DNA from: Candidatus Paracaedimonas acanthamoebae
Lineage (GTDB): Bacteria > Pseudomonadota > Alphaproteobacteria > Caedimonadales > Caedimonadaceae
DNA length: 32,000 bases
Reading direction: 5' to 3'
NCBI GenBank assembly: GCA_000743035.1
Contig: CP008936.1
Location: 450,001-482,000 of the forward strand
Positions 1-18,280 of the stretch are shown piece by piece. Made by a program: the position numbers and the translations under genes. The notes under the pieces were generated by a model. It saw only the letters and a list, made by a program, of their open reading frames with translations. It did not search any database and was not told the origin of the DNA. Position 1 is the first letter of the stretch. Each line of letters opens with the position of its first letter.

Positions 1-1320
1 CCAGACCTAAATATTGTCTTTCTCTCAAGTAAGGAACTAAGTAAGAGTCCTGCTAGTATTGATAGAACCTTAGCAGAAAGAGACCGGTTTAACTCTCAGG
101 ATCCAGCATACATTTTATACACCTCAGGTTCGACAGGGCAGCCTAAGGGGGCACTTATTTCGCATGAAAGTTTAATCAATTGTGTCTTTGCTACGCGTGA
201 TGCTTGTCATATTGATTCAACACATACATTCATTGCTGTAACTTCTTTGACTTTTGATGTTAGCCTACTCGATTATTTTCTTCCTCTGACAGTGGGTGGT
301 AAAGTCGTAATAGTTCCACAAGGGCAAGAAAAGCTAGATTATGAGGTTTGGAACATTATCAAAGACCATAAGAAAGTTGCAATACAGGGAACCTCTAGTT
401 TTTGGCAGCTATTATTTGCAAGGTCAGTCTCTATAAGTGACAAGCTTCTTATTTTAATTGCTGGAGAAGCTCTTAAAATATCTCTTGTGAGAAAACTACT
501 GCCGTATGGAGAGATATACAACCTTTATGGTCCTACAGAAGGGACGATTTATGCCAGTGCTCAATATATTCATGATGAGAGTCTAATCACTATTGGCAAA
601 CCTTTGGCTAATATACAGCTTTACCTTCTTGATGAAACTTTGGATATGGTAGGGATAGGAGTAGTTGGAGAGTTGTATATAGGAGGAGTGGGGTTAGCGA
701 GAGGATATATTAACCGCCCTGAGTTAACAGCGGAACGTTTTATTGATAACCCTTATGCAACAGAAGAAGATCGTCAGGCAGGACGGAATCTGAAGCTTTA
801 TAGGACAGGCGACCTTGGTCGTTATCTTCCTGATGGGACGATAGAGTTTTTAGGAAGAACCGATGATCAGGTTAAGATTAGAGGGTATCGTATAGAGCTT
901 GGTGAGATAGAGTCAGCCCTTCTTCAAGAGAAGGGAGCGAAGCAGGTATTAGTGATGGCTGTTGAGCAAGATCAGCAGAAGAGTCTAGTTGCGTATGTTG
1001 TTCCTGAAGGAGAGTTGAGTAAAGAGACTTTAGGTCGAGATTTAAGGGTTGCTTTAGAGGGAGTCCTTCCTGAGTATATGGTTCCTCAGGCGTTTGTATT
1101 TTTAGAGTCGTTTCCTTTATCAGTGAATGGGAAGATTGATCGGTCAGCGCTTCCAAGACCTGACAGGAGTGATTTAACGAATACTTCTTTTGAAGTACCT
1201 GAGACGGAGACGGAGCGAGTCCTTGCAGAGATATGGAAGGATCTATTACATCTTGAAGCTGTGGGTCGATATGACAACTTCTTCCAGATAGGGGACATTC
1301 TCTCCTTGCCGTGCAGATGA
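1..1320 (+). CDS. NRPS fragment, 5' partial. It covers an adenylation domain (A3-A10) and the start of a carrier domain, and is ended by a 1-nt frameshift. It is almost certainly the same gene as 1311..7256.
   Basis: Frame 1 is open from nt 1, so the TTG at 247 is not a real start. The translation shows these A-domain motifs: YTSGSTGQPKG (A3, 118-150), LTFDVS (A4), NLYGPTE (A5), GELYIGGVGLARGY (A6), YRTGDL (A7), GRTDDQVKIRGYRIELGEIE (A8), LPEYMVP (A9) and NGKIDR (A10). After DNFFQIG it reads GDILSLPCR-stop instead of GGHSLL. Confidence 0.85.
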   Translation, partial: PDLNIVFLSSKELSKSPASIDRTLAERDRFNSQDPAYILYTSGSTGQPKGALISHESLINCVFATRDACHIDSTHTFIAVTSLTFDVSLLDYFLPLTVGGKVVIVPQGQEKLDYEVWNIIKDHKKVAIQGTSSFWQLLFARSVSISDKLLILIAGEALKISLVRKLLPYGEIYNLYGPTEGTIYASAQYIHDESLITIGKPLANIQLYLLDETLDMVGIGVVGELYIGGVGLARGYINRPELTAERFIDNPYATEEDRQAGRNLKLYRTGDLGRYLPDGTIEFLGRTDDQVKIRGYRIELGEIESALLQEKGAKQVLVMAVEQDQQKSLVAYVVPEGELSKETLGRDLRVALEGVLPEYMVPQAFVFLESFPLSVNGKIDRSALPRPDRSDLTNTSFEVPETETERVLAEIWKDLLHLEAVGRYDNFFQIGDILSLPCR

Positions 1321-3341
1321 TAAATCATGCACAGCGTCATTTTAACTGCACTCTTTCTTTAAGAGACTTCTTTACTCAAGCTACTTTACAAGCTTTAGCG
1401 TCACTTATTGAAGAGGCTATAGAGCCTCATTCTAAGAAGATTGTAGGATGGGAGTCTATCCCTCAAGCGGATCCTTCCCTTCCTATTCCTCTGTCTTTTA
1501 CACAGCAAAGAGTATGGTTTTTACAAAAGTTGCTTATGCAGGAAGCTCTTTACCACATACCCTTTAGCATAGAGCTGAGAGGATATGTTTGTGTAGATTC
1601 TCTTTCTTATGCGTTACGGGAAGTGATCAACCGTCATTCAATTTTACGCACGAACATCGTTGAGCAACAAGGACAAGCCTTTCAAGTAATAAAAGCCCCT
1701 CTTTCATCTTTTAAGCTTGAGAGAGTAGATCTTACAAGTTTGAAGGTTGAAGCCCAAGCAGAACAGCTTGAAGAGCTGTTGCGACTTAATGCTCAGAAGC
1801 CATTTAATCTAGCCTCAGATTCTCTTTTAAGAGTCTTGTTAGTGGCTTTAAGCGAAGAGCGGCACGTTTTAGCAGTGACCTTTCATCATCTTATTGCGGA
1901 TGGATGGTCTTTAGCTATTTTTTGTCGGGAGTTGAGTGCTTTTTATAATCATGCGGTTGCAGGAGATGCTGTTAACTTAACACCGCTTGCTATACAATTT
2001 AGTGACTTTGCGCATTGGCAAAGACAATCACCTGTTTCTCATCTTGAGTATTGGCTTAAGCATCTTGAGAATCCTCCTGCTTTGTCGACCTTCCCAACTA
2101 ACTATCGTCGCCCTGCAGAGTTAAGCTATCGAGGACGCACCCTCTCGTTTACGCTTCCTGATGACCTTTTGCAGCAGTTGAAAGCATTTAGTGAGGCACA
2201 AGAAGTGACATTATTTATGACACTTCTTTCTGCCTTTATGGTGCTGTTGCAACGTTACAGTCAGCAAGAAGATTTAATTATTGGTCTTCCTGTTGCGAAC
2301 CGTTCTCATCCTGATGTTGAACCTTTGATAGGTTTTTTTACCAATACCCTAGCTTTTAGATTACAAGGGTTGGAAAGTAATCTAAGATTTTTAGAAGTGC
2401 TTCAGCTAACGAAAGCCACTGTTTTAGAGAGTTTTGAACATCAAGAAGCGCCTTTTGAGCAAGTGGTTGATCATTTGCAGGTACCTCGTATGCTGAATGC
2501 AAACCCTCTCTTCCAAGTCATGTTCTCGTATCAGTCTATGACAGCTTCTCCGATAACGCTTACTCGCCTCGAGACTCATCCTTGGCATTCATCTCACACA
2601 ACAGCGAAGTTCGATATAAACTTCTTCGTTCAAGAACAAGCTGATCATATAGCTATGCTTATCGAATATGCGACAGATTTATATGAGGAAGAGACGGTTG
2701 AGCGACTTGGAGCTCACTATCAACAGTTGTTGACCGAGATTATGGCAGCTCCTCAAGGGGCCATTGGAGCCTTTGAGCTGCTGACCTCCTCTGAGCGTCA
2801 GAAGATTTTATATGACTGGAACAATACGTCTGCTCCTTATCCGAGTGATGTGTGTTTGCATGAGTTGTTTGAGGCACAGGTTGAGAGGACACCTGATGCA
2901 ATAGCAGTAAGGTTTGAAGATGAGAGCCTGAGCTATAGAGAGTTGAATGAGAGATCGAACCGTCTTGCACATGCATTAAGAGCAGAAGGGGTAGGGCCTG
3001 AGGTTCTTGTTGCGATTGCTCTTGATCGTTCTTTTGAGATGATCATCAGTGTGCTTGGGATCTTAAAGGCAGGGGGGGCATATGTTCCTCTTGATCCTTC
3101 CTTTCCTGAAGAGCGGCTTAAGTTCATGGTCGAAGATACGCAAGCTCCAATCGTCCTTTCGTTTGAAAGTAGTCTTTTAGGATCAGCGTATAAAGGGAAG
3201 ATTATTGATCCAAGAGAGATCATAGCACAGGAGAGTTTATCGAGCAGTAATTTGAGGTCAGATGTAAAGCCTCATCATCTTGCCTATGTGATTTACACTT
3301 CAGGTTCAACAGGAAAACCCAAAGGTGTCATGATAGAGCAT
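631..3341 (+). repeat. Repeat family R1, copy a. It spans A6-A10, the frameshifted PCP, a full C domain and A1-A3.
   Basis: 655..3341 matches 11591..14277 (offset 10936, 2687 bp). The translations are identical on both strands and I found no mismatch in spot checks. 631..1292 matches 8342..9003 (offset 7711). Confidence 0.9.
1291..1294 (+). other. Frameshift site: a GGGG tract where GGGGG would restore the carrier-domain motif FFQIGGHSLLAVQMI.
   Basis: Adding one G to ata-gggg-acattctc gives ata ggg gga cat tct ctc ctt gcc gtg cag atg, which is IGGHSLLAVQM. That runs in frame into ORF 1311..7256. The intact sister copy at 9002-9013 reads ggc ggg cat tct. Confidence 0.85.
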
Positions 3342-6300
3342 CATAGCGCTGCAAACACAATTTTGGATATCAACTGTCGCTATAGCGTAACAATACACGA
3401 TAATATATTGGCCTTATCATCTCTGACATTTGACTTATCCGTGTATGACATTTTTGGAGCGCTTGCGGCTGGAGCTGCAATTGTTCTGTTAGAAGGGCAA
3501 AATGCTAAAGATCCATCTTACTGGTATGAGTGCCTAAGTAAGTATAATGTAACAATATGGAATTCAGTGCCTACTTCTATAGGCTTACTTGCACAAACGG
3601 TTGAGAGCTTAAGAGAAGTACATAATTTAACACTTCGACTTGTTCTTTTGAGTGGAGATTGGATTCCTGTTGAACTTCCAAATCGTATTTGGAATAAATT
3701 GGGGGAAAGCATTAAGGTTATCAGCTTGGGAGGTGCGACTGAGGGTTCAATTTGGTCTATTGAGTATCCTATTGATTCTGTCTCTTCTGAATGGAAAAGT
3801 ATTCCTTATGGGAAGGCCCTTACTAATCAAGCTATTTATATCTTTAATTCTTGTGGGAAAATCTGCCCTTTTCTCGGAGTAGGTGAAATTGTGATTGGTG
3901 GAGAGGGTGTAGCAAGAGGCTATCTTAATCGCCCTGAGCTAAACAAAGAAAAATTCCAAATAGCATCATTATTTATAAGCTCCCAATCAGCTAGCACTTA
4001 TTCAAATAATCTTTATTATACTGGTGATTTAGGCCGGTGCTTGCCTGATGGGACGATTGAGTTTTTAGGGCGAAAGGATAATCAAGTTAAGATTAGAGGG
4101 TTTCGAGTTGAAATTGATGAAATTAAAATTACCTTACAAGAACTACCTGAGGTAAAAGAAGCGCTAGTATTACCTGTACAACGAGAGGATAAAGCTCAAT
4201 TTATTAGCTCATATATTCTTCTTAAAAGTTCTATAGATGACTCGCAGAAAACAAGCAAAAGCCAGGAAATCTTGTCACTATTAAAGTACAAATTACCAGA
4301 ATATATGATTCCAAGCACACTTATAATCTTAGACGCCTTTCCTTTGAGTGCTAATGGAAAAATTGACTTTAATGCATTAGCAAGTGCTGGAATAAGAAGT
4401 GAGGAGGTAACTTCTGCCCAACCAGCATTCAAGAATGAAATTGAAATTACTCTTGCAAATTTATTTAAGAGAATTCTGAAACTAGAAAGCATCGGTTTAA
4501 AAGATAACTTTTTTCAAATGGGCGGAGACTCGCTTCTTGCAATACAGTTTGTCTCCTTGGCGCGAGAAGAAGGGCTTCTCTTAAAATTAAAAGATGTATT
4601 TATATACCCTACTATAGAGGATCTTAGTAAGTGCATTACTGTTCTTGAAAAGCCAGTACAGAGCAAGAAAAAGGAAAAAAAATCTTACAAGGAGCCTTTT
4701 ACATTATCTCCTATACAGCAATGGCTCATTAGGGAGTTTAGTTCAACTATTGATAGTATAACTCAGCATCTGTGTCTAGAGCTTGAGGAACATACTGACC
4801 TTGAAATTCTGCAAAGAGCATTAGAAACAACTCTTTCTCAACAAGAAGCCTTCTATTTAGTATTTATGCAAAAAGAACAGAAATGGTTACAAGCTAAGAA
4901 TGATAAAGAACAATGGGTTATTGCACATCTAGATCTTTCACAATATGCTAACGAAGACAGTGAGAATTTATTTATAGAAAAAATTAAGGCTTTAAAGAAA
5001 AAAATATCAATTAAAGGACCTCTTGCAGGTTTCTTATTAACCAAACATCGAGAGAATAAGACTTCCTTAACGCTTATTATCCACCATTTGATTATTGATG
5101 GGATATCTTGGCAAATCTTGCTTGAAGAGCTTGCATATTATTATAACCAATACAAGAAGAACAGTGGATTGGTTGAATATAGGGAGCGAAGTGATACTCT
5201 TGTTGATTATAGCAATTTTCTGGAAACATACAGCAAGAATGTTAGCAATAATTCTTCAGTCATCAGCGTACCTCAACAAAAATTTCTTGCTCCTAGAGAA
5301 AAAGAGATTCCAGCAAGAGTTGGGAGTATGAGTCTCTCGCTTGATAGCTTAACGACCAAATTACTGAGAGATCAGGCCTATTCTATTGGTACAACTATAG
5401 CGAATGTAATTATAGCGGCACTTGTGTATAGCCTTAAGAAGCTAGCGGTTAATGATTCTGTTACCTTAACCTTAGAAGGACAAACAAGAGACTTATCTTC
5501 AGAATATGACTTTTCCAGAACTTTTGGATGGTTTACAACACTGTATCCCGTAGCCTTTGATGTTCCACAAGAATTAAATTTACAAGAGTTTATCGGATTT
5601 ATTACTCGTCATATTCATGCTATTCCGAATGAGGGATTAGATTATGGTATTATGAATTATTATAAAACTGTTGTGCCCTCTTCAACTTTACCAAGTATTC
5701 TCTTTAACTATGCAGGTAATTGGGGAAATTCCCATAATCTCTTCAAGAATTCATTGCCGATTGAAGCATTCGATGAAGAGTATATACCTTTGTTTCCTCT
5801 TGAGGTTAATTCGTTGATTCAAGATGACCAGTTAAAAATTAAATTCATTTTTGATGAGAGAGTATTTCCAAAAAGAATCATAGAGGAACTCTCACAAACT
5901 TTAAGAGAAACAATTAGAGAAATTAGCCTATTAGCTTATGGAAGCCTAGCAATATTCCAGAAATATTCCAGTAAAATTGACTGCTTGATACCATTATCAC
6001 CGACCCAAGAGGGAATTTTATTTCATGCGCTCGCTTACCCAGATCATGAGGCTTATACTGTACAAACCTTAATAGAGATTAACGGAGATCTAGATATTGA
6101 GGCGCTTGAGCGAGCATGTAATAAGACAATAGCAGCCTATGACATACTTAGAACAGGTTTTATTTGGGATACAAGTGATAAACCTATCCAATTTATATTG
6201 AAATCTTTATGCATTTCTCTTAATCAGATGACCCTTCAGGACTACGAGAATCATATACAGGCTCTTGAGGCTATATTAGCCGCGGAACGTAAGCAATTAC

Positions 6301-7256
6301 CTTCTTTAGATACGCCTCCTTTAATGAGATTTACTATTGTAAAATCCTTTGATAATAAATACTATTTCATCTGGACATGCCATCATCTGCTACTCGACGG
6401 GCAATCATTAGCTATTATCTTAGAAAGCATTTTCTCATATTACCAAAATGCTAATCAGAGAGTGATTTCACAGAATACTCCCCCTGCATATAGAGATTAT
6501 ATTCTCTGGCTAAAAAAGAAAGATGATTCAGAAGATAAATCTTTTTGGCAGAACTACTTGACTGATTTTGATAACAACTACCCTAGAATACGTTTAGATT
6601 TTAGAACAACCTATCAGTATAAGACGCATGTATTCACTCTTTCCGCTAAGGATAGAACAAGACTAGTAGCTTTGGGATCACAATATGGATTAACTCTTAG
6701 TACATTATTGTTAAGCATATGGTCGCTTGTATTGAGTATATATTGGAGGCGTAAAGATTTCTTAATAGGATTAACAGTTTCTAGTAGAAATGCTGATATT
6801 CCCAATATGGATAAGATGGCAGGGCCTTTAATTGATACATTACCTTTCAGGGTTCGCTGTCTTTCCGATATCAATTTTTGGGAGTTTGCAGCTCAAATTC
6901 AGAAAGAAATAGCTCTTCTTCAACAATACTCACATGTGTCTCCTTTAGATATACAAAGCTGGAATAATATGGATAAAGCAACCCCACTTTTTGATAGCAT
7001 TTTTACATATCAAAATTTTGGGAAGCCTGAGAAAATTGTTCAGGAATTAACTGATATTAAGGCCCAATTGATAAGCAGTATAGATTATAATGAGTATCCC
7101 CTTACCTTAATGATCATTCCTGAAGATAAGATAAGCATACATGTCACGTATCTGAGCCAATTTTATACTCAAAAGCAAGCGGAGGCTTTTGAAAAAGTAT
7201 TTTGTGACATGATTAACAATATTTTATCTGTTGCTAAAAGCGGAGACGATAGATGA
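1311..7256 (+). CDS. NRPS: (rest of PCP)-C-A(Cys)-PCP-E-C. It continues 1..1320 across the frameshift.
   Basis: - C domain: HHLIADG at 1884-1904.
- A domain: LSYRELN, KAGGAYVPLDP, YTSGSTGKPKG (3294-3326), FDLSVYD, SLGGATEGSIWS, NGKIDF.
- Hand-extracted specificity code: DLYNLSLIWK, the canonical Cys code.
- PCP: FFQMGGDSLL, Ser codon 4530-4532.
- Epimerase-type domain: LSPIQQW, HHLIIDGISWQIL (5082-5102), FNYAGNW.
- DCL-type C domain: LSPTQEGILFH and HHLLLDG (6381-6401). Confidence 0.92.
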   Translation: MQMINHAQRHFNCTLSLRDFFTQATLQALASLIEEAIEPHSKKIVGWESIPQADPSLPIPLSFTQQRVWFLQKLLMQEALYHIPFSIELRGYVCVDSLSYALREVINRHSILRTNIVEQQGQAFQVIKAPLSSFKLERVDLTSLKVEAQAEQLEELLRLNAQKPFNLASDSLLRVLLVALSEERHVLAVTFHHLIADGWSLAIFCRELSAFYNHAVAGDAVNLTPLAIQFSDFAHWQRQSPVSHLEYWLKHLENPPALSTFPTNYRRPAELSYRGRTLSFTLPDDLLQQLKAFSEAQEVTLFMTLLSAFMVLLQRYSQQEDLIIGLPVANRSHPDVEPLIGFFTNTLAFRLQGLESNLRFLEVLQLTKATVLESFEHQEAPFEQVVDHLQVPRMLNANPLFQVMFSYQSMTASPITLTRLETHPWHSSHTTAKFDINFFVQEQADHIAMLIEYATDLYEEETVERLGAHYQQLLTEIMAAPQGAIGAFELLTSSERQKILYDWNNTSAPYPSDVCLHELFEAQVERTPDAIAVRFEDESLSYRELNERSNRLAHALRAEGVGPEVLVAIALDRSFEMIISVLGILKAGGAYVPLDPSFPEERLKFMVEDTQAPIVLSFESSLLGSAYKGKIIDPREIIAQESLSSSNLRSDVKPHHLAYVIYTSGSTGKPKGVMIEHHSAANTILDINCRYSVTIHDNILALSSLTFDLSVYDIFGALAAGAAIVLLEGQNAKDPSYWYECLSKYNVTIWNSVPTSIGLLAQTVESLREVHNLTLRLVLLSGDWIPVELPNRIWNKLGESIKVISLGGATEGSIWSIEYPIDSVSSEWKSIPYGKALTNQAIYIFNSCGKICPFLGVGEIVIGGEGVARGYLNRPELNKEKFQIASLFISSQSASTYSNNLYYTGDLGRCLPDGTIEFLGRKDNQVKIRGFRVEIDEIKITLQELPEVKEALVLPVQREDKAQFISSYILLKSSIDDSQKTSKSQEILSLLKYKLPEYMIPSTLIILDAFPLSANGKIDFNALASAGIRSEEVTSAQPAFKNEIEITLANLFKRILKLESIGLKDNFFQMGGDSLLAIQFVSLAREEGLLLKLKDVFIYPTIEDLSKCITVLEKPVQSKKKEKKSYKEPFTLSPIQQWLIREFSSTIDSITQHLCLELEEHTDLEILQRALETTLSQQEAFYLVFMQKEQKWLQAKNDKEQWVIAHLDLSQYANEDSENLFIEKIKALKKKISIKGPLAGFLLTKHRENKTSLTLIIHHLIIDGISWQILLEELAYYYNQYKKNSGLVEYRERSDTLVDYSNFLETYSKNVSNNSSVISVPQQKFLAPREKEIPARVGSMSLSLDSLTTKLLRDQAYSIGTTIANVIIAALVYSLKKLAVNDSVTLTLEGQTRDLSSEYDFSRTFGWFTTLYPVAFDVPQELNLQEFIGFITRHIHAIPNEGLDYGIMNYYKTVVPSSTLPSILFNYAGNWGNSHNLFKNSLPIEAFDEEYIPLFPLEVNSLIQDDQLKIKFIFDERVFPKRIIEELSQTLRETIREISLLAYGSLAIFQKYSSKIDCLIPLSPTQEGILFHALAYPDHEAYTVQTLIEINGDLDIEALERACNKTIAAYDILRTGFIWDTSDKPIQFILKSLCISLNQMTLQDYENHIQALEAILAAERKQLPSLDTPPLMRFTIVKSFDNKYYFIWTCHHLLLDGQSLAIILESIFSYYQNANQRVISQNTPPAYRDYILWLKKKDDSEDKSFWQNYLTDFDNNYPRIRLDFRTTYQYKTHVFTLSAKDRTRLVALGSQYGLTLSTLLLSIWSLVLSIYWRRKDFLIGLTVSSRNADIPNMDKMAGPLIDTLPFRVRCLSDINFWEFAAQIQKEIALLQQYSHVSPLDIQSWNNMDKATPLFDSIFTYQNFGKPEKIVQELTDIKAQLISSIDYNEYPLTLMIIPEDKISIHVTYLSQFYTQKQAEAFEKVFCDMINNILSVAKSGDDR

Positions 7257-10200
7257 ACAATAGTTTCTTACTTTCTACACTACTAGAAAGTGCTAACTGG
7301 GATAATTCTACAGCATCTAATAATGATTGGAACAATACGTCTGCTCCTTATCCGAGTGATGTGTGTTTGCATGAGTTGTTTGAGGCACAGGTTGAGAGGA
7401 CACCTGATGCAATAGCAGTAAGGTTTGAAGATGAGAACCTGAGCTATAGAGAGTTGAATGAGAGATCGAACCGTCTTGCACATGCATTAAGAGCAGAAGG
7501 GGTAGGGCCTGAGGTTCTTGTTGCGATTGCTCTTGATCGTTCTTTTGAGATGATCATTAGTGTGCTTGGGATCTTAAAGGCAGGAGGAGCATATGTTCCA
7601 CTTGATCCTTCCTTCCCTGAAGAGCGGCTTAAGTTCATGGTTGAAGATACGCAAGCTCCAATCGTTCTTTCGTTTGATCGTAGTCTTTTAGGATCAGCGT
7701 ATAAAGGGAAGATTATTGATCCAAGGGAGGTCATAGCACAGGAGAGTTTATCGAGCAGTAATTTGAGGTCAGATGTAAAGCCTCATCACCTTGCCTATGT
7801 GATTTACACTTCAGGTTCAACAGGTAAACCCAAAGGTGTCATGATCGAACATGAAGGAGTTGTTTGCTTGATGCAAGGGTTGCAAGATCGTTATCCTTTA
7901 GGCTTAGGAGAGACAGTATTATTACAAAGTTCATTCAATTTTGATGCTTCTGTAGAAGAGATTTTCTGGCCAATTCTTTTTGGAGGTACAATGGTTATTG
8001 CTCCTCCTAAAATCCATCAAGACCTTAAAAAATTAGCTCTATTTATAGAAGTTGAAAATATATATAACGTTCGATTCGTTCCTTCCTTATTGGATGCATT
8101 TTTTCAGCAATCTGAGGTAAGTCGGTGCGCTTCCTTACGCCGCATTTTTTCAGGGGGGGAAGCTCTTTCACCAAAGACAAAAGAGTTAATTCTACAAACA
8201 TTCCCCTTAGTTGAGCTCTATAATGATTATGGACCTACTGAAATAACCGTTAGAGCAACTACATATAAATGTAATGCAAGTAGGAATGAGAGCCTTATTC
8301 CCATAGGTCGTCCAATACCTAACAAGACAGTTTACCTATTAGATGAAACTTTGGATATGGTAGGGATAGGAGTAGTTGGAGAGTTGTATATAGGAGGAGT
8401 GGGGTTAGCGAGAGGATATATTAACCGCCCTGAGTTAACAGCGGAACGTTTTATTGATAACCCTTATGCAACAGAAGAAGATCGTCAGGCAGGACGGAAT
8501 CTGAAGCTTTATAGGACAGGCGACCTTGGTCGTTATCTTCCTGATGGGACGATAGAGTTTTTAGGAAGAACCGATGATCAGGTTAAGATTAGAGGGTATC
8601 GTATAGAGCTTGGTGAGATAGAGTCAGCCCTTCTTCAAGAGAAGGGAGCGAAGCAGGTATTAGTGATGGCTGTTGAGCAAGATCAGCAGAAGAGTCTAGT
8701 TGCGTATGTTGTTCCTGAAGGAGAGTTGAGTAAAGAGACTTTAGGTCGAGATTTAAGGGTTGCTTTAGAGGGAGTCCTTCCTGAGTATATGGTTCCTCAG
8801 GCGTTTGTATTTTTAGAGTCGTTTCCTTTATCAGTGAATGGGAAGATTGATCGGTCAGCGCTTCCAAGACCTGACAGGAGTGATTTAACGAATACTTCTT
8901 TTGAAGTACCTGAGACGGAGACGGAGCGAGTCCTTGCAGAGATATGGAAGGATCTATTACATCTTGAAGCTGTGGGTCGATATGACAACTTCTTCCAGAT
9001 AGGCGGGCATTCTTTATTAACAATTAAATTAGCTTCTCAAATTGATAAGAAGCTTGCAGTAAAGTTGCCACTGTCAAGTATGTTCGATAATGTTACTGTC
9101 TATCAACTTGCAGAACATATTGATAAAGAGATTACCAATTCTAAAGGGTGTCAAAGTCAACTATCTCTACTACCTGAGATAACCCCTGATCCTGAAAATA
9201 TGTATGAAGAGTTTCCTTTAACAAGTATTCAGCAGGCTTACTGGATAGGAAGACAAGACCTATTTGAATTAGGAAAAGTCTCAAGCCATGGTTATAGTGA
9301 ATATGATTGTGAGTTTGTTGATATAGAAAGATTAGAGGCAAGCTGGAATAAAGTAATTAATAGTTTTGAAGCACTAAGAATTGTTTTCACAGATCATGGC
9401 ACACAGAAAATATTGCAAGAAATTCCATATTATAAGATTTCAATTGAAGATCTATCCTTACTACGTGATCAAGAAATAGAGAAGGAATTGCTTAGCATAA
9501 GAGATAAGCTATCTCATTACATGTTTGATGAAAAACACTGGCCATTATTTAGAATACAGGTCACAAAGCTAAAAGATAGTTTTAGAATACATTTGAACTT
9601 TGATAGTTTAACCACTGACGCTTGGAGTGATTCAATTATCTTTAATGAATGGGCCAAGTGTTATGCTAATCCCTCTTATGGAATTGCGCCTCTTTCATTT
9701 ACATTCCGTGATTATGTACTAAGTCTTGAAAAGTTAAAAGATACTGAAAAGTTTCAATTAGATCGCCTTTATTGGCTAAATCGTCTGGATAACTTCCCGT
9801 CAGCTCCTAAATTACCTCTTATACAAACAGCAAAGGGATTAAGCGAACAAAAGTTCACCAGGGTCTCAAGCCAGATTCCTATGAACAGTTGGGCCAAAGT
9901 AAGGCAGGCCTTTTCAGGAACCAGCCTCTCACCATCAGCAATTCTTTGTGCCTTATTTGCGGAAGTCCTCGGTTATTGGTCTAACTCCAAACACTTTGCT
10001 ATTAATTTAACTCTCTTTAATCGCCTGCCCCTGCATAAAGATATACACAGAGTTGCCGGCGACTTTACTTCTCTTGATATATTAGAAGTTGATTTTAGGA
10101 CTAAAAATAGTTTTATAGAGCGTGCTAAGAATCTTCATCAGCAGCTTATAAATGATCTCGAGCATCATTTATTTGGAGGGGTTGATTTTTTGAGAGAGCT

Positions 10201-12256
10201 CTCAAAGAAACAGAAGAAATATACTGAGTCATTGATGCCTATTGTTTATACCAGTGTCTTAGGTATGGATACTATTCATTATAAAAATCAACAAACACTA
10301 GATAAACAGTTGAAGGCTAAAGAGGTATATACAATTACTCAAACACCGCAAGTGTGGTTGGATTTTAAATCTCTAGAGCAAGACGGTGACCTTTTTATTG
10401 AGTGGGATTATATCAAAGAATTATTCCCAAAAAATCAAGTTGCAGAAATGCATGCTTTGTTTTGTGACTTATTAAATAAAATTGCAGAAGATAATTCATT
10501 AGTCTATAAGTCTACTCTTCTTAACTTGATAGTTCCTTCACAACAGTCTTTTAGTGTAACTCAAACAACACTTGATAAATTATTTGAAGAAAGTGCGAAG
10601 GCTCATACCCAGCTCCCTGCATTAACTTATAAGAACCAAGATTTATCTTATGGAGAACTTTATAAAAGTGTAGAGAAGATTTCTTCTAACCTCCTAAGAT
10701 TAAATCTTTCAAAAGGAACTGTTATTGCGATTGCTCTCGTAAAGAGCTTTGATTCAACTATTGCTGCTTTGTCTGTTATTAAAGCGCATTCAATTTATTT
10801 GCCGCTAGATCCTGCATGGCCGGCTGAAAGGCTTAGCTATATTTTAAAGGATGCAGAGGCTGAAGTCTTAATAACTTCAAGCGAGTTTATAGAACGCTTT
10901 CAAAAATTTAATGGTACGATTTTATGCCTTGACCAGGATATGAGCGGTTTATCTAATTCTTCAGAATCAGTTCACCATGAGAATTATCATAGAGACTTAG
11001 CGTATGTGATTTACACGTCTGGTTCAACAGGTAAACCCAAAGGTGCTATGCTTGAGCATGAGGGTCCTTCTAACACCATACTTGATATAAACAATCGTTA
11101 TAATATTACCTCGAAAGACAAGATTTTTGCTTTTTCAAATCTTAGTTTTGATTTGTCTATTTATGACTTTTTTGGGGGGCTAGCGGCAGGCGCTAACATC
11201 TTTATCCCTGAGACAGAAAGAAATAAAGATCCTCAATATTGGAAAGCATGTATTCTTCAGAATTGCATTACGGTATGGGACTCTGTGCCACAAATCATGC
11301 AATCATTAATTGATAGTATACCCGAAAGTGAATATTCTTTATTTACAAATACACTAAGATTAGTTTTGTTAAGTGGCGACTGGATTCCGACAAGTTTACC
11401 AGATCGTATCCGATCAGTTTTTGGGAAAGATTGTAAAGTTGTAAGTCTAGGCGGAGCTACTGAAGCATCTATATGGTCTATTTTTTATGACATTGATATA
11501 GTTGATAAGAATTGGGCCAGTATTCCATATGGAAGAGCTCTCAACAATCAAAGCTTTTATGTATTAAATGATGACCTATTAAACAATCCTATAGGAGTAG
11601 TTGGAGAGTTGTATATAGGAGGAGTGGGGTTAGCGAGAGGATATATTAACCGCCCTGAGTTAACAGCGGAACGTTTTATTGATAACCCTTATGCAACAGA
11701 AGAAGATCGTCAGGCAGGACGGAATCTGAAGCTTTATAGGACAGGCGACCTTGGTCGTTATCTTCCTGATGGGACGATAGAGTTTTTAGGAAGAACCGAT
11801 GATCAGGTTAAGATTAGAGGGTATCGTATAGAGCTTGGTGAGATAGAGTCAGCCCTTCTTCAAGAGAAGGGAGCGAAGCAGGTATTAGTGATGGCTGTTG
11901 AGCAAGATCAGCAGAAGAGTCTAGTTGCGTATGTTGTTCCTGAAGGAGAGTTGAGTAAAGAGACTTTAGGTCGAGATTTAAGGGTTGCTTTAGAGGGAGT
12001 CCTTCCTGAGTATATGGTTCCTCAGGCGTTTGTATTTTTAGAGTCGTTTCCTTTATCAGTGAATGGGAAGATTGATCGGTCAGCGCTTCCAAGACCTGAC
12101 AGGAGTGATTTAACGAATACTTCTTTTGAAGTACCTGAGACGGAGACGGAGCGAGTCCTTGCAGAGATATGGAAGGATCTATTACATCTTGAAGCTGTGG
12201 GTCGATATGACAACTTCTTCCAGATAGGGGACATTCTCTCCTTGCCGTGCAGATGA
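7253..12256 (+). CDS. NRPS: A-PCP-Cy-A(Cys-like)-(PCP truncated by frameshift). It is continued by 12247..16272.
   Basis: - The ATGA start/stop overlaps the previous gene at 7253-7256.
- A domain: YTSGSTGKPKG (7805-7837), FDASVEE, NDYGPTE.
- Intact PCP: FFQIGGHSLL, Ser codon 9011-9013.
- Heterocyclisation domain: FPLTSIQQAYWIGR and DSLTTD (DxxxxD, 9602-9619) in place of HHxxxDG.
- Second A domain: YTSGSTGKPKG (11012-11044), FDLSIYD, SLGGATEASIWS. The hand-extracted code DLYDLSLIWK matches the Cys code at 9 of 10 positions.
- The ORF ends GDILSLPCR-stop, as at 1320. Confidence 0.92.
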   Translation: MNNSFLLSTLLESANWDNSTASNNDWNNTSAPYPSDVCLHELFEAQVERTPDAIAVRFEDENLSYRELNERSNRLAHALRAEGVGPEVLVAIALDRSFEMIISVLGILKAGGAYVPLDPSFPEERLKFMVEDTQAPIVLSFDRSLLGSAYKGKIIDPREVIAQESLSSSNLRSDVKPHHLAYVIYTSGSTGKPKGVMIEHEGVVCLMQGLQDRYPLGLGETVLLQSSFNFDASVEEIFWPILFGGTMVIAPPKIHQDLKKLALFIEVENIYNVRFVPSLLDAFFQQSEVSRCASLRRIFSGGEALSPKTKELILQTFPLVELYNDYGPTEITVRATTYKCNASRNESLIPIGRPIPNKTVYLLDETLDMVGIGVVGELYIGGVGLARGYINRPELTAERFIDNPYATEEDRQAGRNLKLYRTGDLGRYLPDGTIEFLGRTDDQVKIRGYRIELGEIESALLQEKGAKQVLVMAVEQDQQKSLVAYVVPEGELSKETLGRDLRVALEGVLPEYMVPQAFVFLESFPLSVNGKIDRSALPRPDRSDLTNTSFEVPETETERVLAEIWKDLLHLEAVGRYDNFFQIGGHSLLTIKLASQIDKKLAVKLPLSSMFDNVTVYQLAEHIDKEITNSKGCQSQLSLLPEITPDPENMYEEFPLTSIQQAYWIGRQDLFELGKVSSHGYSEYDCEFVDIERLEASWNKVINSFEALRIVFTDHGTQKILQEIPYYKISIEDLSLLRDQEIEKELLSIRDKLSHYMFDEKHWPLFRIQVTKLKDSFRIHLNFDSLTTDAWSDSIIFNEWAKCYANPSYGIAPLSFTFRDYVLSLEKLKDTEKFQLDRLYWLNRLDNFPSAPKLPLIQTAKGLSEQKFTRVSSQIPMNSWAKVRQAFSGTSLSPSAILCALFAEVLGYWSNSKHFAINLTLFNRLPLHKDIHRVAGDFTSLDILEVDFRTKNSFIERAKNLHQQLINDLEHHLFGGVDFLRELSKKQKKYTESLMPIVYTSVLGMDTIHYKNQQTLDKQLKAKEVYTITQTPQVWLDFKSLEQDGDLFIEWDYIKELFPKNQVAEMHALFCDLLNKIAEDNSLVYKSTLLNLIVPSQQSFSVTQTTLDKLFEESAKAHTQLPALTYKNQDLSYGELYKSVEKISSNLLRLNLSKGTVIAIALVKSFDSTIAALSVIKAHSIYLPLDPAWPAERLSYILKDAEAEVLITSSEFIERFQKFNGTILCLDQDMSGLSNSSESVHHENYHRDLAYVIYTSGSTGKPKGAMLEHEGPSNTILDINNRYNITSKDKIFAFSNLSFDLSIYDFFGGLAAGANIFIPETERNKDPQYWKACILQNCITVWDSVPQIMQSLIDSIPESEYSLFTNTLRLVLLSGDWIPTSLPDRIRSVFGKDCKVVSLGGATEASIWSIFYDIDIVDKNWASIPYGRALNNQSFYVLNDDLLNNPIGVVGELYIGGVGLARGYINRPELTAERFIDNPYATEEDRQAGRNLKLYRTGDLGRYLPDGTIEFLGRTDDQVKIRGYRIELGEIESALLQEKGAKQVLVMAVEQDQQKSLVAYVVPEGELSKETLGRDLRVALEGVLPEYMVPQAFVFLESFPLSVNGKIDRSALPRPDRSDLTNTSFEVPETETERVLAEIWKDLLHLEAVGRYDNFFQIGDILSLPCR
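7328..7853 (+). repeat. Repeat family R1, diverged copy of the A1-A3 segment (equivalent to 2817..3341).
   Basis: Hand alignment gives about 18 substitutions over about 525 bp and no indels. The G7 run of the other copies (3072-3078) is ggaggag here. Confidence 0.85.
8342..9003 (+). repeat. Repeat family R1, copy b, covering the A6-A10 segment only.
   Basis: 662 bp match 631..1292. The match ends two bases into the Gly-Gly codons, where this copy reads ggcggg (intact GGHS) instead of gggg. Confidence 0.9.
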
Positions 12257-14277
12257 TAAATCATGCACAGCGTCATTTTAACTGCACTCTTTCTTTAAGA
12301 GACTTCTTTACTCAAGCTACTTTACAAGCTTTAGCGTCACTTATTGAAGAGGCTATAGAGCCTCATTCTAAGAAGATTGTAGGATGGGAGTCTATCCCTC
12401 AAGCGGATCCTTCCCTTCCTATTCCTCTGTCTTTTACACAGCAAAGAGTATGGTTTTTACAAAAGTTGCTTATGCAGGAAGCTCTTTACCACATACCCTT
12501 TAGCATAGAGCTGAGAGGATATGTTTGTGTAGATTCTCTTTCTTATGCGTTACGGGAAGTGATCAACCGTCATTCAATTTTACGCACGAACATCGTTGAG
12601 CAACAAGGACAAGCCTTTCAAGTAATAAAAGCCCCTCTTTCATCTTTTAAGCTTGAGAGAGTAGATCTTACAAGTTTGAAGGTTGAAGCCCAAGCAGAAC
12701 AGCTTGAAGAGCTGTTGCGACTTAATGCTCAGAAGCCATTTAATCTAGCCTCAGATTCTCTTTTAAGAGTCTTGTTAGTGGCTTTAAGCGAAGAGCGGCA
12801 CGTTTTAGCAGTGACCTTTCATCATCTTATTGCGGATGGATGGTCTTTAGCTATTTTTTGTCGGGAGTTGAGTGCTTTTTATAATCATGCGGTTGCAGGA
12901 GATGCTGTTAACTTAACACCGCTTGCTATACAATTTAGTGACTTTGCGCATTGGCAAAGACAATCACCTGTTTCTCATCTTGAGTATTGGCTTAAGCATC
13001 TTGAGAATCCTCCTGCTTTGTCGACCTTCCCAACTAACTATCGTCGCCCTGCAGAGTTAAGCTATCGAGGACGCACCCTCTCGTTTACGCTTCCTGATGA
13101 CCTTTTGCAGCAGTTGAAAGCATTTAGTGAGGCACAAGAAGTGACATTATTTATGACACTTCTTTCTGCCTTTATGGTGCTGTTGCAACGTTACAGTCAG
13201 CAAGAAGATTTAATTATTGGTCTTCCTGTTGCGAACCGTTCTCATCCTGATGTTGAACCTTTGATAGGTTTTTTTACCAATACCCTAGCTTTTAGATTAC
13301 AAGGGTTGGAAAGTAATCTAAGATTTTTAGAAGTGCTTCAGCTAACGAAAGCCACTGTTTTAGAGAGTTTTGAACATCAAGAAGCGCCTTTTGAGCAAGT
13401 GGTTGATCATTTGCAGGTACCTCGTATGCTGAATGCAAACCCTCTCTTCCAAGTCATGTTCTCGTATCAGTCTATGACAGCTTCTCCGATAACGCTTACT
13501 CGCCTCGAGACTCATCCTTGGCATTCATCTCACACAACAGCGAAGTTCGATATAAACTTCTTCGTTCAAGAACAAGCTGATCATATAGCTATGCTTATCG
13601 AATATGCGACAGATTTATATGAGGAAGAGACGGTTGAGCGACTTGGAGCTCACTATCAACAGTTGTTGACCGAGATTATGGCAGCTCCTCAAGGGGCCAT
13701 TGGAGCCTTTGAGCTGCTGACCTCCTCTGAGCGTCAGAAGATTTTATATGACTGGAACAATACGTCTGCTCCTTATCCGAGTGATGTGTGTTTGCATGAG
13801 TTGTTTGAGGCACAGGTTGAGAGGACACCTGATGCAATAGCAGTAAGGTTTGAAGATGAGAGCCTGAGCTATAGAGAGTTGAATGAGAGATCGAACCGTC
13901 TTGCACATGCATTAAGAGCAGAAGGGGTAGGGCCTGAGGTTCTTGTTGCGATTGCTCTTGATCGTTCTTTTGAGATGATCATCAGTGTGCTTGGGATCTT
14001 AAAGGCAGGGGGGGCATATGTTCCTCTTGATCCTTCCTTTCCTGAAGAGCGGCTTAAGTTCATGGTCGAAGATACGCAAGCTCCAATCGTCCTTTCGTTT
14101 GAAAGTAGTCTTTTAGGATCAGCGTATAAAGGGAAGATTATTGATCCAAGAGAGATCATAGCACAGGAGAGTTTATCGAGCAGTAATTTGAGGTCAGATG
14201 TAAAGCCTCATCATCTTGCCTATGTGATTTACACTTCAGGTTCAACAGGAAAACCCAAAGGTGTCATGATAGAGCAT
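11591..14277 (+). repeat. Repeat family R1, copy c (A6-A10, frameshifted PCP, C domain, A1-A3).
   Basis: This is the perfect or near-perfect 2687-bp direct repeat of 655..3341. Confidence 0.9.
12227..12230 (+). other. Second copy of the GGGG frameshift site in the carrier-domain GGHS motif.
   Basis: The sequence context is identical to 1291-1294 (offset 10936). It lies inside the 2687-bp perfect repeat. Confidence 0.85.
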
Positions 14278-16272
14278 GAAGGAGTTGTAAATCTTATTTA
14301 CAATATCTTTCCTGAATTTGTGTCAGATGAGTATAAGAGCTTTGCAGGTTTAACAAATTTAACTTTTGATATTGCAGTGCTAGAAATCTTCTGGCCGCTT
14401 GTCTTTGGGAAACAGATTGCCTTGTACCCATCAATCTTACAAGAAGGTCATAGATTTATTACAGATTCTATAGAACCTGATTTAATTCAAGCCACTCCAA
14501 GCGTAGTCAAGCTTTTGAAGCAAGCTGGTTGGAAACCCTCCTCTTGCTCAACACTTATATGTGGAGGAGAGGAGATCCAGCAGGATTTAATAGAGGATCT
14601 AGGTGGCAACATTAAGCAGATTCTTAACGTGTATGGTCCTACTGAAGCAACGATCTGGGCTACAAAGATTAAACTAGCTAAAGGGAATATTATTACGCTT
14701 GGCAGGCCAATTGCTAATTACACAATTTATATTCTAAATGAAAATATGGAACCTAATCCTATAGGAGTTCCTGGAGAGTTGTATATAGGAGGGGTAGGGC
14801 TAGCGAGAGGGTATATTAACCGCCCTGAGTTAACAGCGGAACGTTTTATTGATAACCCTTATGCAACAGAAGAAGATCGTCAGGCAGGACGGAATCTGAA
14901 GCTTTATAGGACAGGCGACCTTGGTCGTTATCTTCCTGATGGGACGATTGAGTTTTTAGGGAGAACTGATGATCAGGTTAAGATTAGAGGGTATCGTATA
15001 GAGCTTGGTGAGATAGAACAAACAATTAAGAAACTTGAAGAAATTAAAGATGTTGTCGTTATAGCAACTGAGAATACAGCAGAAAATAAGAACCTCGTTG
15101 CTTTCTACCTGTGCCATTGTTATTCACAAGATCATAATAAAGGATCTGTGGTTGATAAGATAAAGCGTTATCTTAAGCGCACACTACCACCTTACATGGT
15201 ACCAACCACTCTTATAGAGATAGATAAAATGCCTATGCTTCCTAGCGGAAAGATTAACAGGAAAAAGCTTCTTTCTCAAGTGATAGAAGACAAACAAAGA
15301 GATGTTATACAACCAGAAACTACCCTTGAGTTTCAATTATTAAATATATGGCAACATCATTTACAAAAATTAATTATTAGCATTGATGACAATTACTTTG
15401 AGATTGGCGGTACTTCTCTAACGGCAGTTGTGTTATTAAACATTATTAATGAAAAGTTTAATGTTCAAGTACCTTTTTCTTTATTTTATAAAGCTCCTCA
15501 GATACGTACTATTGCAGAATTCATTACTTCAGATACGCAAGATGTCTTGCCTGTGGTAACTATCAGTAACGGTAAGAACTCCACGTTATTTCTTATCCAT
15601 CCTGCAAGTGGATTGTGTACTGAGTACTTTAATCTATCTCATGTGATTGGTGAGTTAAAAGTCATTGGTATTAATAATCCTTATTTTGGCATGCCTGACC
15701 AGAAGTTTGATTCACTCTCGAATATGGCTACAGAGTATATAAAAATTATTAAATCGATGCAGCCAGAAGGCCCATATAATTTAGGAGGGTGGTCTTTCGG
15801 AGGTAATGTTGCTTTTGAAATTGCAAGGCAATTAAGTTGCGATGGTGCCCAAATCAATAAGCTATTTCTGTTTGATAGTATTAATATGGGGCCGTATCAA
15901 ATTGAGACCACTGAAGAAGACATTTATCTAGCACCTGAGCATCATCAAAATGAAGAGATACAGAAAGGAAATGAGCTTTTCAGTAGAGAAATAAGAAGAA
16001 ATATGAAACTTTTATCCTCCTTTAAGCCTAGTATTTATTCTGGTCCACTTACACTATTAAAAGGAATAAAAGATGATATTACAAAAGATTATACTTTAAT
16101 TACCGAGAAGAATGGATGGGATTTGGTCTGCGGTAACCAAATAGAAATATTGCCAATCCCAGTGCGACATGCTGAGTTTTTCCAGAAAGAGACAATAAAT
16201 GAGGTCGGGAAAATTCTAAAAGATTCATTCGGATTAAAAGATGAACTACAGTGCTATAAGCATGTGGCATAA
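12247..16272 (+). CDS. NRPS terminal part: (rest of PCP)-C-A(Gly-like)-PCP-TE.
   Basis: - The first ~677 aa are identical to ORF 1311..7256 (C domain HHLIADG at 12820, A1-A3).
- Unique core follows: FDIAVLE, IQATPS, NVYGPTEATIW. The hand-extracted code DILQIGVIWK matches the Gly code DILQLGLIWK at about 8 of 10 positions.
- PCP: YFEIGGTSL, Ser codon 15415-15417.
- Thioesterase: LIHPASG and GGWSFGG, Ser codon 15793-15795. Confidence 0.92.
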   Translation: MQMINHAQRHFNCTLSLRDFFTQATLQALASLIEEAIEPHSKKIVGWESIPQADPSLPIPLSFTQQRVWFLQKLLMQEALYHIPFSIELRGYVCVDSLSYALREVINRHSILRTNIVEQQGQAFQVIKAPLSSFKLERVDLTSLKVEAQAEQLEELLRLNAQKPFNLASDSLLRVLLVALSEERHVLAVTFHHLIADGWSLAIFCRELSAFYNHAVAGDAVNLTPLAIQFSDFAHWQRQSPVSHLEYWLKHLENPPALSTFPTNYRRPAELSYRGRTLSFTLPDDLLQQLKAFSEAQEVTLFMTLLSAFMVLLQRYSQQEDLIIGLPVANRSHPDVEPLIGFFTNTLAFRLQGLESNLRFLEVLQLTKATVLESFEHQEAPFEQVVDHLQVPRMLNANPLFQVMFSYQSMTASPITLTRLETHPWHSSHTTAKFDINFFVQEQADHIAMLIEYATDLYEEETVERLGAHYQQLLTEIMAAPQGAIGAFELLTSSERQKILYDWNNTSAPYPSDVCLHELFEAQVERTPDAIAVRFEDESLSYRELNERSNRLAHALRAEGVGPEVLVAIALDRSFEMIISVLGILKAGGAYVPLDPSFPEERLKFMVEDTQAPIVLSFESSLLGSAYKGKIIDPREIIAQESLSSSNLRSDVKPHHLAYVIYTSGSTGKPKGVMIEHEGVVNLIYNIFPEFVSDEYKSFAGLTNLTFDIAVLEIFWPLVFGKQIALYPSILQEGHRFITDSIEPDLIQATPSVVKLLKQAGWKPSSCSTLICGGEEIQQDLIEDLGGNIKQILNVYGPTEATIWATKIKLAKGNIITLGRPIANYTIYILNENMEPNPIGVPGELYIGGVGLARGYINRPELTAERFIDNPYATEEDRQAGRNLKLYRTGDLGRYLPDGTIEFLGRTDDQVKIRGYRIELGEIEQTIKKLEEIKDVVVIATENTAENKNLVAFYLCHCYSQDHNKGSVVDKIKRYLKRTLPPYMVPTTLIEIDKMPMLPSGKINRKKLLSQVIEDKQRDVIQPETTLEFQLLNIWQHHLQKLIISIDDNYFEIGGTSLTAVVLLNIINEKFNVQVPFSLFYKAPQIRTIAEFITSDTQDVLPVVTISNGKNSTLFLIHPASGLCTEYFNLSHVIGELKVIGINNPYFGMPDQKFDSLSNMATEYIKIIKSMQPEGPYNLGGWSFGGNVAFEIARQLSCDGAQINKLFLFDSINMGPYQIETTEEDIYLAPEHHQNEEIQKGNELFSREIRRNMKLLSSFKPSIYSGPLTLLKGIKDDITKDYTLITEKNGWDLVCGNQIEILPIPVRHAEFFQKETINEVGKILKDSFGLKDELQCYKHVA
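14761..15017 (+). repeat. Repeat family R1, diverged partial copy (A6-A8).
   Basis: 257 bp align with 655..911 (offset 14106) with a handful of substitutions. Similarity stops right after GYRIELGEIE. Confidence 0.8.
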
Positions 16273-16291
16273 TAAGGGGGAAGCTGTATCA

Positions 16292-18094: not shown

Positions 18095-18280
18095 GTAGTG
18101 GACGATGATTAAGTCTTAAATCTGCTTAAATCTTTTATTTATTATTTGTTGTATAAGAGCGTTTAAATTAAATATTTAAGTAGCCTATGTGATAGTTTTT
18201 TAAAAAATTATGTAGTGTAATTTGGCTTTTATATGCTTTATGCTATGTATAAATTTTATATGTTATAGTTGGGGGCAAGG

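Follow-up and report, generated by a model that had tools for sequence, protein, structure and literature searches.

Concerted evolution by intra-cluster gene conversion is known from the domains of nonribosomal peptide synthetases (NRPSs) and polyketide synthases (PKSs); Medema et al. (2014, PMC4256081) described it for the NRPSs of daptomycin/A54145/CDA and of syringopeptin and for a large number of PKSs. A second route of change is the A-core swap, in which recombination breakpoints lie inside the adenylation (A) domain near core motifs and leave flanks that are alike and a substrate-binding region that is not (Baunach et al. 2021, PMC8097286). When different cores sit in identical scaffolds, this is usually read as the trace of natural core swaps that make new peptides, and engineering copies such swaps. 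The FFxxGGxS motif of the T domain (peptidyl carrier protein, PCP) is a further frequent natural recombination boundary, and serves as XUT fusion site IV (Bozhuyuk et al., bioRxiv 10.1101/2022.12.02.518901). Finally, repeats termed GRINS, which are associated with gene conversion, are defined as being >500 bp long with >80% DNA identity within a synthase and having mean |GC skew| and |TA skew| >0.15, the two skews being correlated (PMC8256042). Here we describe an NRPS gene cluster, locus 1, in a window of 32,000 nucleotides (nt) (contig CP008936.1, positions 450,001 to 482,000 of the forward strand; all positions below are those of the window unless another sequence is named) from Candidatus Paracaedimonas acanthamoebae, an obligate Acanthamoeba endosymbiont.

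In this locus, large parts of the synthetase are repeated between modules, up to perfect identity, around specificity cores that differ. Comparison with a collinear cluster from another lineage makes it very probable that intra-cluster gene conversion homogenises the inter-core segments around ancestral specificity cores. The polarity is thus opposite to that of a core swap, and the locus is a caution against inferring swaps from single genomes. The concepts involved, namely concerted evolution, breakpoints at A-domain motifs, the FFxxGGxS boundary and conversion-associated skewed repeats, are already published; what this locus adds is the sub-domain resolution, the reversed polarity and the presence of the same perfect unit in two lineages that are ~63% identical in DNA.

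Repeat blocks between the specificity cores

A protein search identified the source organism and showed that the second open reading frame (ORF) of the window is IM40_02420; it also located IM40_02410, a 2121-aa protein of the organisation C-A-PCP-C-A-PCP (C, condensation domain), upstream of the window on the same contig. The window contains matches to the Pfam families Condensation, AMP-binding, AMP-binding_C, PP-binding and Thioesterase, and the motifs A1-A10, HHxxxDG, FFxxGGxS, Cy1 and those of the epimerisation (E) domain are present in order, as in a modular, type I NRPS. The assembly line comprises seven modules. M1 and M2, both C-A-PCP, are encoded by IM40_02410, and our statements on them derive from protein sequence; the last five modules form locus 1 and are M3 (C-A0-PCP, in a gene that runs off the left edge of the window), M4 (C-A1-PCP-E, Cys-type), M5 (C, gene break, A2-PCP), M6 (Cy-A3-PCP, where Cy is a heterocyclisation domain and A3 is Cys-type) and M7 (C-A4-PCP-TE, Gly-like, where TE is the thioesterase). 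All features of locus 1 lie on the forward strand.

Self-blastn of the window revealed a perfect direct repeat of 2687 bp (655-3341 vs. 11591-14277, 100% identity) with starts 10,936 bp apart. Copy A runs from A6-A10 of M3 through a frameshifted PCP and a C domain to A1-A3 of M4, and copy B takes in the corresponding parts of M6 and M7. Three segments can be distinguished within copy A: the C-block (655-1301), consisting of A6-A10 and the PCP's N-terminal half as far as FFQIGG; the C-terminal half of the PCP with the C domain (1302-2811), delimited by Pfam, NCBIfam and the motif HHLIADG at 1884; and the N-block (2812-3341), which extends from the C-A linker through A1-A3 of M4. The N-block is identical to 13748-14277 and recurs in M5 at 7323-7852 with 96.8% identity, the pair 7323-7863 and 13748-14288 being 96.9% identical. 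The C-block recurs in M5 at 8327-9013, where it is in frame through the PCP N-terminal half (ATAGGCGGGCAT, FFQIGGHSL) and similarity stops inside GGHS; this copy is 99.1% identical to 615-1301, perfectly so from 631, and 99.7% identical to 11591-12237 over 8366-9013, perfectly so from 8366. A partial C-block covering A6-A8 is present in M7 (14761-15017, 96.1% identical to 655-911). The shared blocks are also carried by IM40_02410, in whose first A domain (M1) the N-block tract ends earlier on the right, after the A2 motif, and in which the PCP sequence FFQIGGHSLLAVQMI is in frame.

The specificity cores occupy the intervals between these blocks, at 1-654 for M3 (from the A3 motif to just before A6), 3342-3869 for M4, 7853-8326 for M5, 11060-11590 for M6 and 14278-14760 for M7. 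In a codon alignment of the five A domains, identity drops at A3 and at A6 from 93-100% to 30-60% in a single 20-codon step (Fisher tests across the two breakpoints, p = 7e-116 and p = 4e-121). The right edge of the N-block lies 14 nt past the A3 motif (GKPKGVMIEH), and the left edge of the C-block 12 nt before GELYIGG (A6). Individual tracts begin at 631 (A0/A2), 655 (A0/A3) and ~655-666 (A4), all ≤36 nt upstream of A6, and their right ends lie at the end of the A8 motif (RIELGEIE; 911/15017), the inside of the PCP motif FFQIGG|HS (1301/9013) and 5 residues past A3 (3341/14277/7852). Identity between 655-1301 and 8366-9013 stops at the GG of FFQIGGHS, that is, at the T-domain FFxxGGxS boundary.

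Divergence is not uniform among the copies. It is 0% in the 2687-bp pair and among three C-block copies, 3.2% in the N-block of M5 (17 mismatches to 2812-3341, 11/17 of them within 3047-3219) and 3.9% in the partial C-block of M7. By this measure the blocks differ in age, and the N-block of M5 is best regarded as an older conversion. The absence of any difference in 2687 nt, all synonymous sites included, when orthologous sequences diverge by ~37% (see below), means that constraint at the protein level does not explain the identity, and we ruled it out as the cause.

The original prediction, made from the sequence of the window without database searches, had described locus 1 as a recombination mosaic in which A1-A3 and A6-A10 blocks, about 95-100% identical, break at A3 and A6 around cores with different codes (Cys, Cys-like, Gly-like and two others), and in which a perfect 2687-bp direct repeat recurs at ~10.9 kb. 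The self-blastn blocks with their abrupt ends, the codon alignment and the extracted codes (below) bear out each of these points. Its statement that the cores are unrelated at the DNA level needs correction for the Cys-type cores of A1 and A3, which have ~72% DNA identity over 195 nt.

Cores and flanks compared with a collinear cluster

Specificity codes were extracted by alignment to GrsA-PheA. The reference itself returned DAWTIAAICK, the canonical Phe code, and the alignment register is therefore right. The five A domains of the window gave DVLQLALIYK (A0), DLYNLSLIWK (A1), DAERFGDVRK (A2), DLYDLSLIWK (A3) and DILQIGVIWK (A4); the second is the canonical Cys code, the fourth is Cys-like and the last Gly-like.

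The nearest non-self relative of the synthetase was P0023 (44% protein identity), encoded on the JGI metagenome contig L001. This contig is collinear with the window from 228 to 17189, the offset drifting from 9.94 to 9.72 kb, at ~63% DNA identity; it has the domain order of the window, the same seven modules in the same order and a similar GC content (0.354). It also contains a repeat of its own, 10593-13273 vs. 21371-24050 in contig coordinates. All differences between its two copies lie at 10598-10606, leaving them identical for 2667 bp, from 3 nt before GELYIGG to ~10 residues past A3. This is the same A6-A10/PCP/C/A1-A3 unit, at M3-M4 and M6-M7 as in the window, and it has ~63% DNA identity to the unit found there.

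All 14 A domains of the two clusters were cut into A1-A3, A3-A6 (the core) and A6-A10, and identity matrices and bootstrapped neighbour-joining trees were computed for each part. The cores pair by module position across the two lineages: M1 with M1 (60% identity, bootstrap 100), M3 with M3 (50%, 99), M4 with M4 (57%, 92.5), M6 with M6 (68%, 100) and M7 with M7 (43%, 100), with the M2 and M5 cores forming one group (50-52%, bootstrap 100). The flanks group by genome. For A6-A10, M2, M3, M5 and M6 of Paracaedimonas are 100% identical (bootstrap 100) and M3 and M6 of L001 98% (bootstrap 100), vs. 61% across genomes; for A1-A3, M2, M4, M5 and M7 of Paracaedimonas share 98-100% (bootstrap 89) and M4 and M7 of L001 100% (bootstrap 100), vs. 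55% across genomes. Identity of 98-100% within a genome thus stands against 55-61% protein and ~63% DNA identity between genomes, the signature of concerted evolution. Flanks that have not been homogenised retain the positional pairing seen in the cores, namely A1-A3 of M6 (bootstrap 99.5) and A6-A10 of M4 (96) and M1 (98.5), so that the local signal of cores and unconverted flanks together has bootstrap support of 92.5-100. The Cy region of M6 has 56% protein identity to that of L001. Only the M3-M4/M6-M7 pair is homogenised in L001; in Paracaedimonas M2 and M5 have received the blocks as well, and so have parts of M1 and M7.

The codes tell the same story. Those of M1 (DVWHCSLIDK) and M2 (DAERFGDVRK) are identical in the two clusters, and those of M3-M7 differ by 1-2 residues, L001 having DVLQLAFVYK at M3, DLFNLSLIWK at M4, DAEQFGDVSK at M5 (DAERFGDVRK in Paracaedimonas), DLYNLSLIWK at M6 and DIFQIGVIWK at M7. 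Essentially the same heptapeptide is predicted for both lineages (for Paracaedimonas Ser-like, X, Y, D-Cys, X, thiazoline, Gly), and hence a product that is, to judge from the codes, unchanged. As the cores pair by position while the flanks group by genome, it is the flanks that moved and not the cores; and as the cores are positional orthologs with conserved codes, they were in place before the lineages split.

These data also decide against the explanation that the pattern most readily calls to mind, in which duplicated modules with identical scaffolds gained different A3-A6 cores and so diversified the peptide. Identical flanks around divergent cores are indeed what such swaps leave behind, and among the documented modes of NRPS diversification A-core swaps predominate (PMC8097286). 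However, each core has its partner at the same position of L001 (bootstrap 92.5-100), with the same or a nearly identical code, and is closest to this positional ortholog; the cores predate the split of lineages that are now ~63% identical in DNA; and the compositional outliers are the flanks (GC 0.44), not the cores or the neighbouring genes (0.35). A core swap that took place before the split would leave the present 100% identity unexplained. We therefore consider subdomain swapping very unlikely, and the emphasis of the original prediction on subdomain swapping and on a snapshot of NRPS diversification is not upheld. On the comparison of these two clusters, the homogenisation of the flanks is concerted evolution rather than core swapping, module duplication or diversification.

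The mechanism that we propose is repeated, non-reciprocal homologous recombination between modules of the same cluster, which would overwrite the inter-core segments. The converted span would begin at A6 of one module, take in its PCP and the C domain that follows, and end at A3 of the module after it, or would comprise parts of this stretch. The A3-A6 cores between such spans are old, vertically inherited and positional orthologs of those in L001. Tracts start and stop at short, strongly conserved motifs: A3, A8 (at its end), the PCP FFxxGGxS and a position just upstream of A6. Two factors may keep the cores out of the tracts. One is a homology barrier, since cores at 30-60% DNA identity would be too divergent for heteroduplex extension; the other is a selection filter, in that a change of core would alter the product and such events would be removed. 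Conversion is probably ongoing.

The core is not always spared. The A domains of M2 and M5 of Paracaedimonas are identical in protein from A1 to A10, core included, and conversion thus passes through the core where both modules share a code, as it does in the two A domains of a second NRPS in the window (locus 2). This fits the selection filter, and it fits the homology barrier as well. Locus 2 (A-PCP-C-A-PCP-TE; ORF 22876-28824) contains a perfect 1338-bp repeat, 22915-24252 vs. 26194-27531, that spans A1 to A8 including the core; both A domains have the code IDWVTSLADK, which lacks Asp235 and appears beta-Ala-like. With a GC content of 0.374 and a skew of +0.05, this repeat is neither GC-rich nor skewed. 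As a background, 1/70 unrelated Cy-containing NRPS loci (≥8 kb) contains a stretch of ≥400 bp that recurs internally at ≥90% identity. This locus, L043, has a 1742-bp repeat (11162-12903 and 15370-17111 of that locus, 99.5%) that takes in a Cys-type A domain in full, starting at the end of a Cy domain and reaching the PCP, which fits conversion through the cores of same-substrate modules. Strong homogenisation is accordingly uncommon, but not unique to locus 1.

Could the repeats have been created by the assembly? The genome was assembled from 454, Illumina and PacBio reads and was brought to closure by hand through the resolution of repeats (PMC4198247), so that repeat copies or their contexts might be chimeric; both perfect copies carry the same frameshift (see below), and consensus collapse would yield exact identity. 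Against this, the order of cores and flanks matches, module for module, an independent assembly of another organism; the other copies, at 96-99% identity, have scattered and partly synonymous differences that collapse does not produce; and the product of IM40_02410 carries the same blocks. An artefact of this kind is very improbable. Collapse may at most have erased a few true differences between the two perfect copies, and the mosaic is independent of it, given the scattered differences in the 96-99% copies and the module order shared with L001. A very recent duplication of a module or module pair, unaided by conversion, would account for the perfect 2687-bp repeat but is scarcely credible, as the repeat accounts for just 2.7 kb of each 10.9-kb interval, the cores in between and alongside are at 30-60% DNA identity and L001 has the same seven modules, order and repeat location. 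The original prediction had named very recent module duplication or ongoing gene conversion as the source of the repeat; the second of these is favoured by our results and the first is not.

Some points do weigh against intra-cluster conversion around ancestral cores as we present it. The polarity is drawn from a comparison of two clusters, as one related lineage was found; for M1 and M2 the comparison is at the level of protein; consensus collapse of near-identical repeats could inflate perfect identity in both assemblies; and continuous conversion of an ancestral repeat may not be distinguishable here from independent, recent conversions in each lineage. Exact-protein look-ups with four products of the window (ABC transporter, Vut_1, DUF2608 and IM40_02420) retrieved no contigs. 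Searches for a third lineage were negative: in metagenome and genome contigs, scans with a Cy-domain alignment recovered nothing beyond generic Cy domains (≤43% identity), the unique E-C stretch had no match among species-representative genomes, and a protein search with the A0 core, which did not return the self gene, yielded only short generic A-domain fragments at ≤42% identity and no closer relative (e.g. Ca. Paracaedibacter symbiosus).

The PCP frameshift and the remaining parts of the window

The 2687-bp unit had been taken to be complete, and as a repeat it stands; its PCP, however, is interrupted in both perfect copies by a 1-nt deletion in the GGHS motif, in the G-runs at 1291-1294 and 12227-12230 (4 G where 5 are needed). 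As annotated by ORF, this creates the boundaries 1320/1311 and 12256/12247 between A and C domains, where Pfam detects no PCP. Three-frame translation and alignment showed that the PCP is present but divided between two frames, with FFQIG in one and GHSLLAVQMINH in the other. At the deletion the sequence is ATAGGGGACAT, whereas ATA GGG GGA CAT would give I G G H S, as in the in-frame copy of M5. With a single G added, the PP-binding domain is again full-length (54 bits, profile positions 2-67 of 67). The stretch so restored, YDNFFQIGGHSLLAVQMIN, does not differ from the intact PCP of L001, a cluster in which one uninterrupted gene encodes M3-M4 and another M6-M7. It follows that the two boundaries, at about 1311-1320 and 12247-12256, are derived frameshifts and not natural gene splits, and they should not be taken as docking-domain splits.

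Whether the missing G is a homopolymer error of sequencing or consensus, in which case the synthetase would be made of three intact genes as in L001, is in our judgement evenly balanced. Both 454 and PacBio reads are prone to homopolymer-length miscalls. Such data were used for this genome (PMC4198247), read mapping would be ambiguous in a perfect repeat of 2.7 kb, the ~16 kb of NRPS coding sequence are free of any other frameshift or stop, and the one added G gives a full PCP identical to that of L001 across the restored stretch. On the other hand, a run of 4-5 bases is short for an error of this type, especially with Illumina polishing. The alternative is a genuine inactivating mutation that was copied into the second unit by gene conversion, and a real deletion would reach the second copy by the same process as the blocks. 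Obligate endosymbionts accumulate pseudogenes.

Between the shared blocks, the synthetase has regions of unique sequence. The interval 3870-7252 (GC 0.35) holds A6-A10 of M4, its PCP (FFQMGGDSL at 4509), the E domain (~4641-5999; motifs SPIQQWL, HHLIIDGIS, RTFGWFTTLYP, PNEGLDYG and FNYAG) and the C domain of M5 (~6000-7252), assigned by Pfam, NCBIfam and motifs. The next gene starts at 7253 with an ATGA overlap (7253-7256), so that the C and A domains of M5 belong to different proteins. This C|A break is common to L001 (17077-17088 of the contig), and the division of one module between two proteins, though unusual, appears to be genuine. Further downstream, 9014-11590 comprises the C-terminal half of the M5 PCP, the Cy domain (FPLTSIQQAYWIGR), A1-A3 of M6 and the M6 core, and 15018-16272 comprises A8-A10 of M7, its PCP and the thioesterase that ends the assembly line (Pfam, motifs).

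Locus 1 is followed by an ABC exporter, a 482-aa protein, a phosphopantetheinyl transferase, two unrelated genes, the locus 2 NRPS, a paralog of the 482-aa protein and an IS3-family transposase (rve, HTH_21; 30599-31474, reverse strand), which lies just downstream of locus 2 in a region with a local GC of 0.42. The two paralogs, 482 aa (18269-19717) and 475 aa (28973-30400), are 58% identical and each lies downstream of an NRPS locus, the 482-aa one behind the ABC exporter in locus 1 and the 475-aa one immediately behind the locus 2 NRPS. Neither had a sequence match in Pfam, NCBIfam or PDB, and they may represent an uncharacterised NRPS-associated family.

Composition and comparison with known systems

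The shared blocks differ from their surroundings in composition. Their GC content is 0.42-0.45 vs. 0.34-0.39 in cores, unique NRPS parts and neighbouring genes (C-block 0.445, N-block 0.443), and their third-position GC content is 0.35-0.38 vs. 0.25-0.31. The C-block has a GC skew of +0.33 and the N-block one of +0.22; 647-nt control segments of unique NRPS sequence gave 0.045 +/- 0.072, with a maximum of 0.217. At third codon positions the skew rises to +0.61 in the C-block, +0.43 in the N-block and +0.32 in the C domain, with 0.0-0.2 in the equivalent unique regions. The L001 repeat is likewise GC-enriched (0.40 vs. 0.34), and its strong skew is negative and located in the C-domain part (-0.26). 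A foreign origin of the blocks from a source of higher GC was set aside for two reasons: their divergence from L001 (55-61% protein identity) is similar to that of the cores (43-68%), and GC enrichment is seen in the L001 repeat too. GC-biased conversion may contribute to the composition.

Measured against the GRINS definition in 150-nt windows with a 30-nt step, the blocks have the required length and identity (530-2687 bp at 96-100%). Mean absolute GC skew exceeds the threshold in the A-domain blocks (0.31-0.33 in the C-block, 0.24 in the N-block) and is only 0.105 in the C-domain part. Mean |TA skew| is 0.09-0.12 in all blocks, and its correlation with GC skew is negative (r -0.2 to -0.6). 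Strict membership was rejected on the TA skew, and the blocks are GRINS-like. Tentatively, they might be GRINS-like, conversion-prone elements in the NRPS of an AT-rich alphaproteobacterial endosymbiont, although we find this doubtful. Were it true, conversion would be long-lived, self-reinforcing and possibly GC-biased at fixed positions of the assembly line, and some 'A-core swaps' elsewhere would really be flank homogenisation. The GC enrichment and G-skew of the converted blocks are in any case relevant to how such repeats arise, be it as GRINS or through GC-biased conversion.

For engineering, two aspects of the locus are of interest. A single A6-A10/PCP/C/A1-A3 unit stands beside Cys, Gly-like and two further core types, an instance of the natural interoperability that exchange-unit engineering needs; and the tract ends (A3, the position before A6, the A8 end and FFxxGGxS) are additional natural examples of tolerated fusion sites.

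How, then, does locus 1 compare with the systems described so far? As in the clusters of Medema et al. (2014, PMC4256081), domains that are paralogs in one cluster are closer than orthologs between clusters and the changes are product-neutral, and the model of those authors, in which functional divergence shields some parts from homogenisation, fits here. The difference lies in the sub-domain resolution, the unit A6-PCP-C-A3 skipping the A3-A6 core, in the occurrence of the same unit with nearly the same ends, perfect in each of two lineages ~63% identical in DNA, and in the host, an AT-rich obligate endosymbiont of amoebae. With the A-core swaps of Baunach et al. (2021, PMC8097286) the locus shares the breakpoints inside the A domain near core motifs and the similar flanks around a dissimilar substrate-binding region, but the polarity is reversed, flanks being exchanged while cores are kept and the product is unchanged; moreover, the tract takes in Asub, PCP, C and the C-A linker, which those authors report to be usually native. 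The block boundary at 1301/9013, inside the PCP FFQIGGHS, coincides with XUT site IV (bioRxiv 10.1101/2022.12.02.518901), with the differences that recombination here is between modules of one cluster and that in two copies the boundary coincides with the frame-breaking 1-nt deletion.

The likeness to GRINS (PMC8256042) consists in >500-bp, >80% identical repeats within one synthase, their association with gene conversion and an odd composition that is strongest at third codon positions; the skew, furthermore, differs in sign and location between the two lineages. Unlike in GRINS, |TA skew| is below 0.15 and shows no positive correlation with GC skew, the blocks have a raised GC content (0.44 vs. 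0.35), a feature that the GRINS definition does not include, and the host synthetase is a proteobacterial NRPS, where GRINS have been reported to be rare (PMC8256042).

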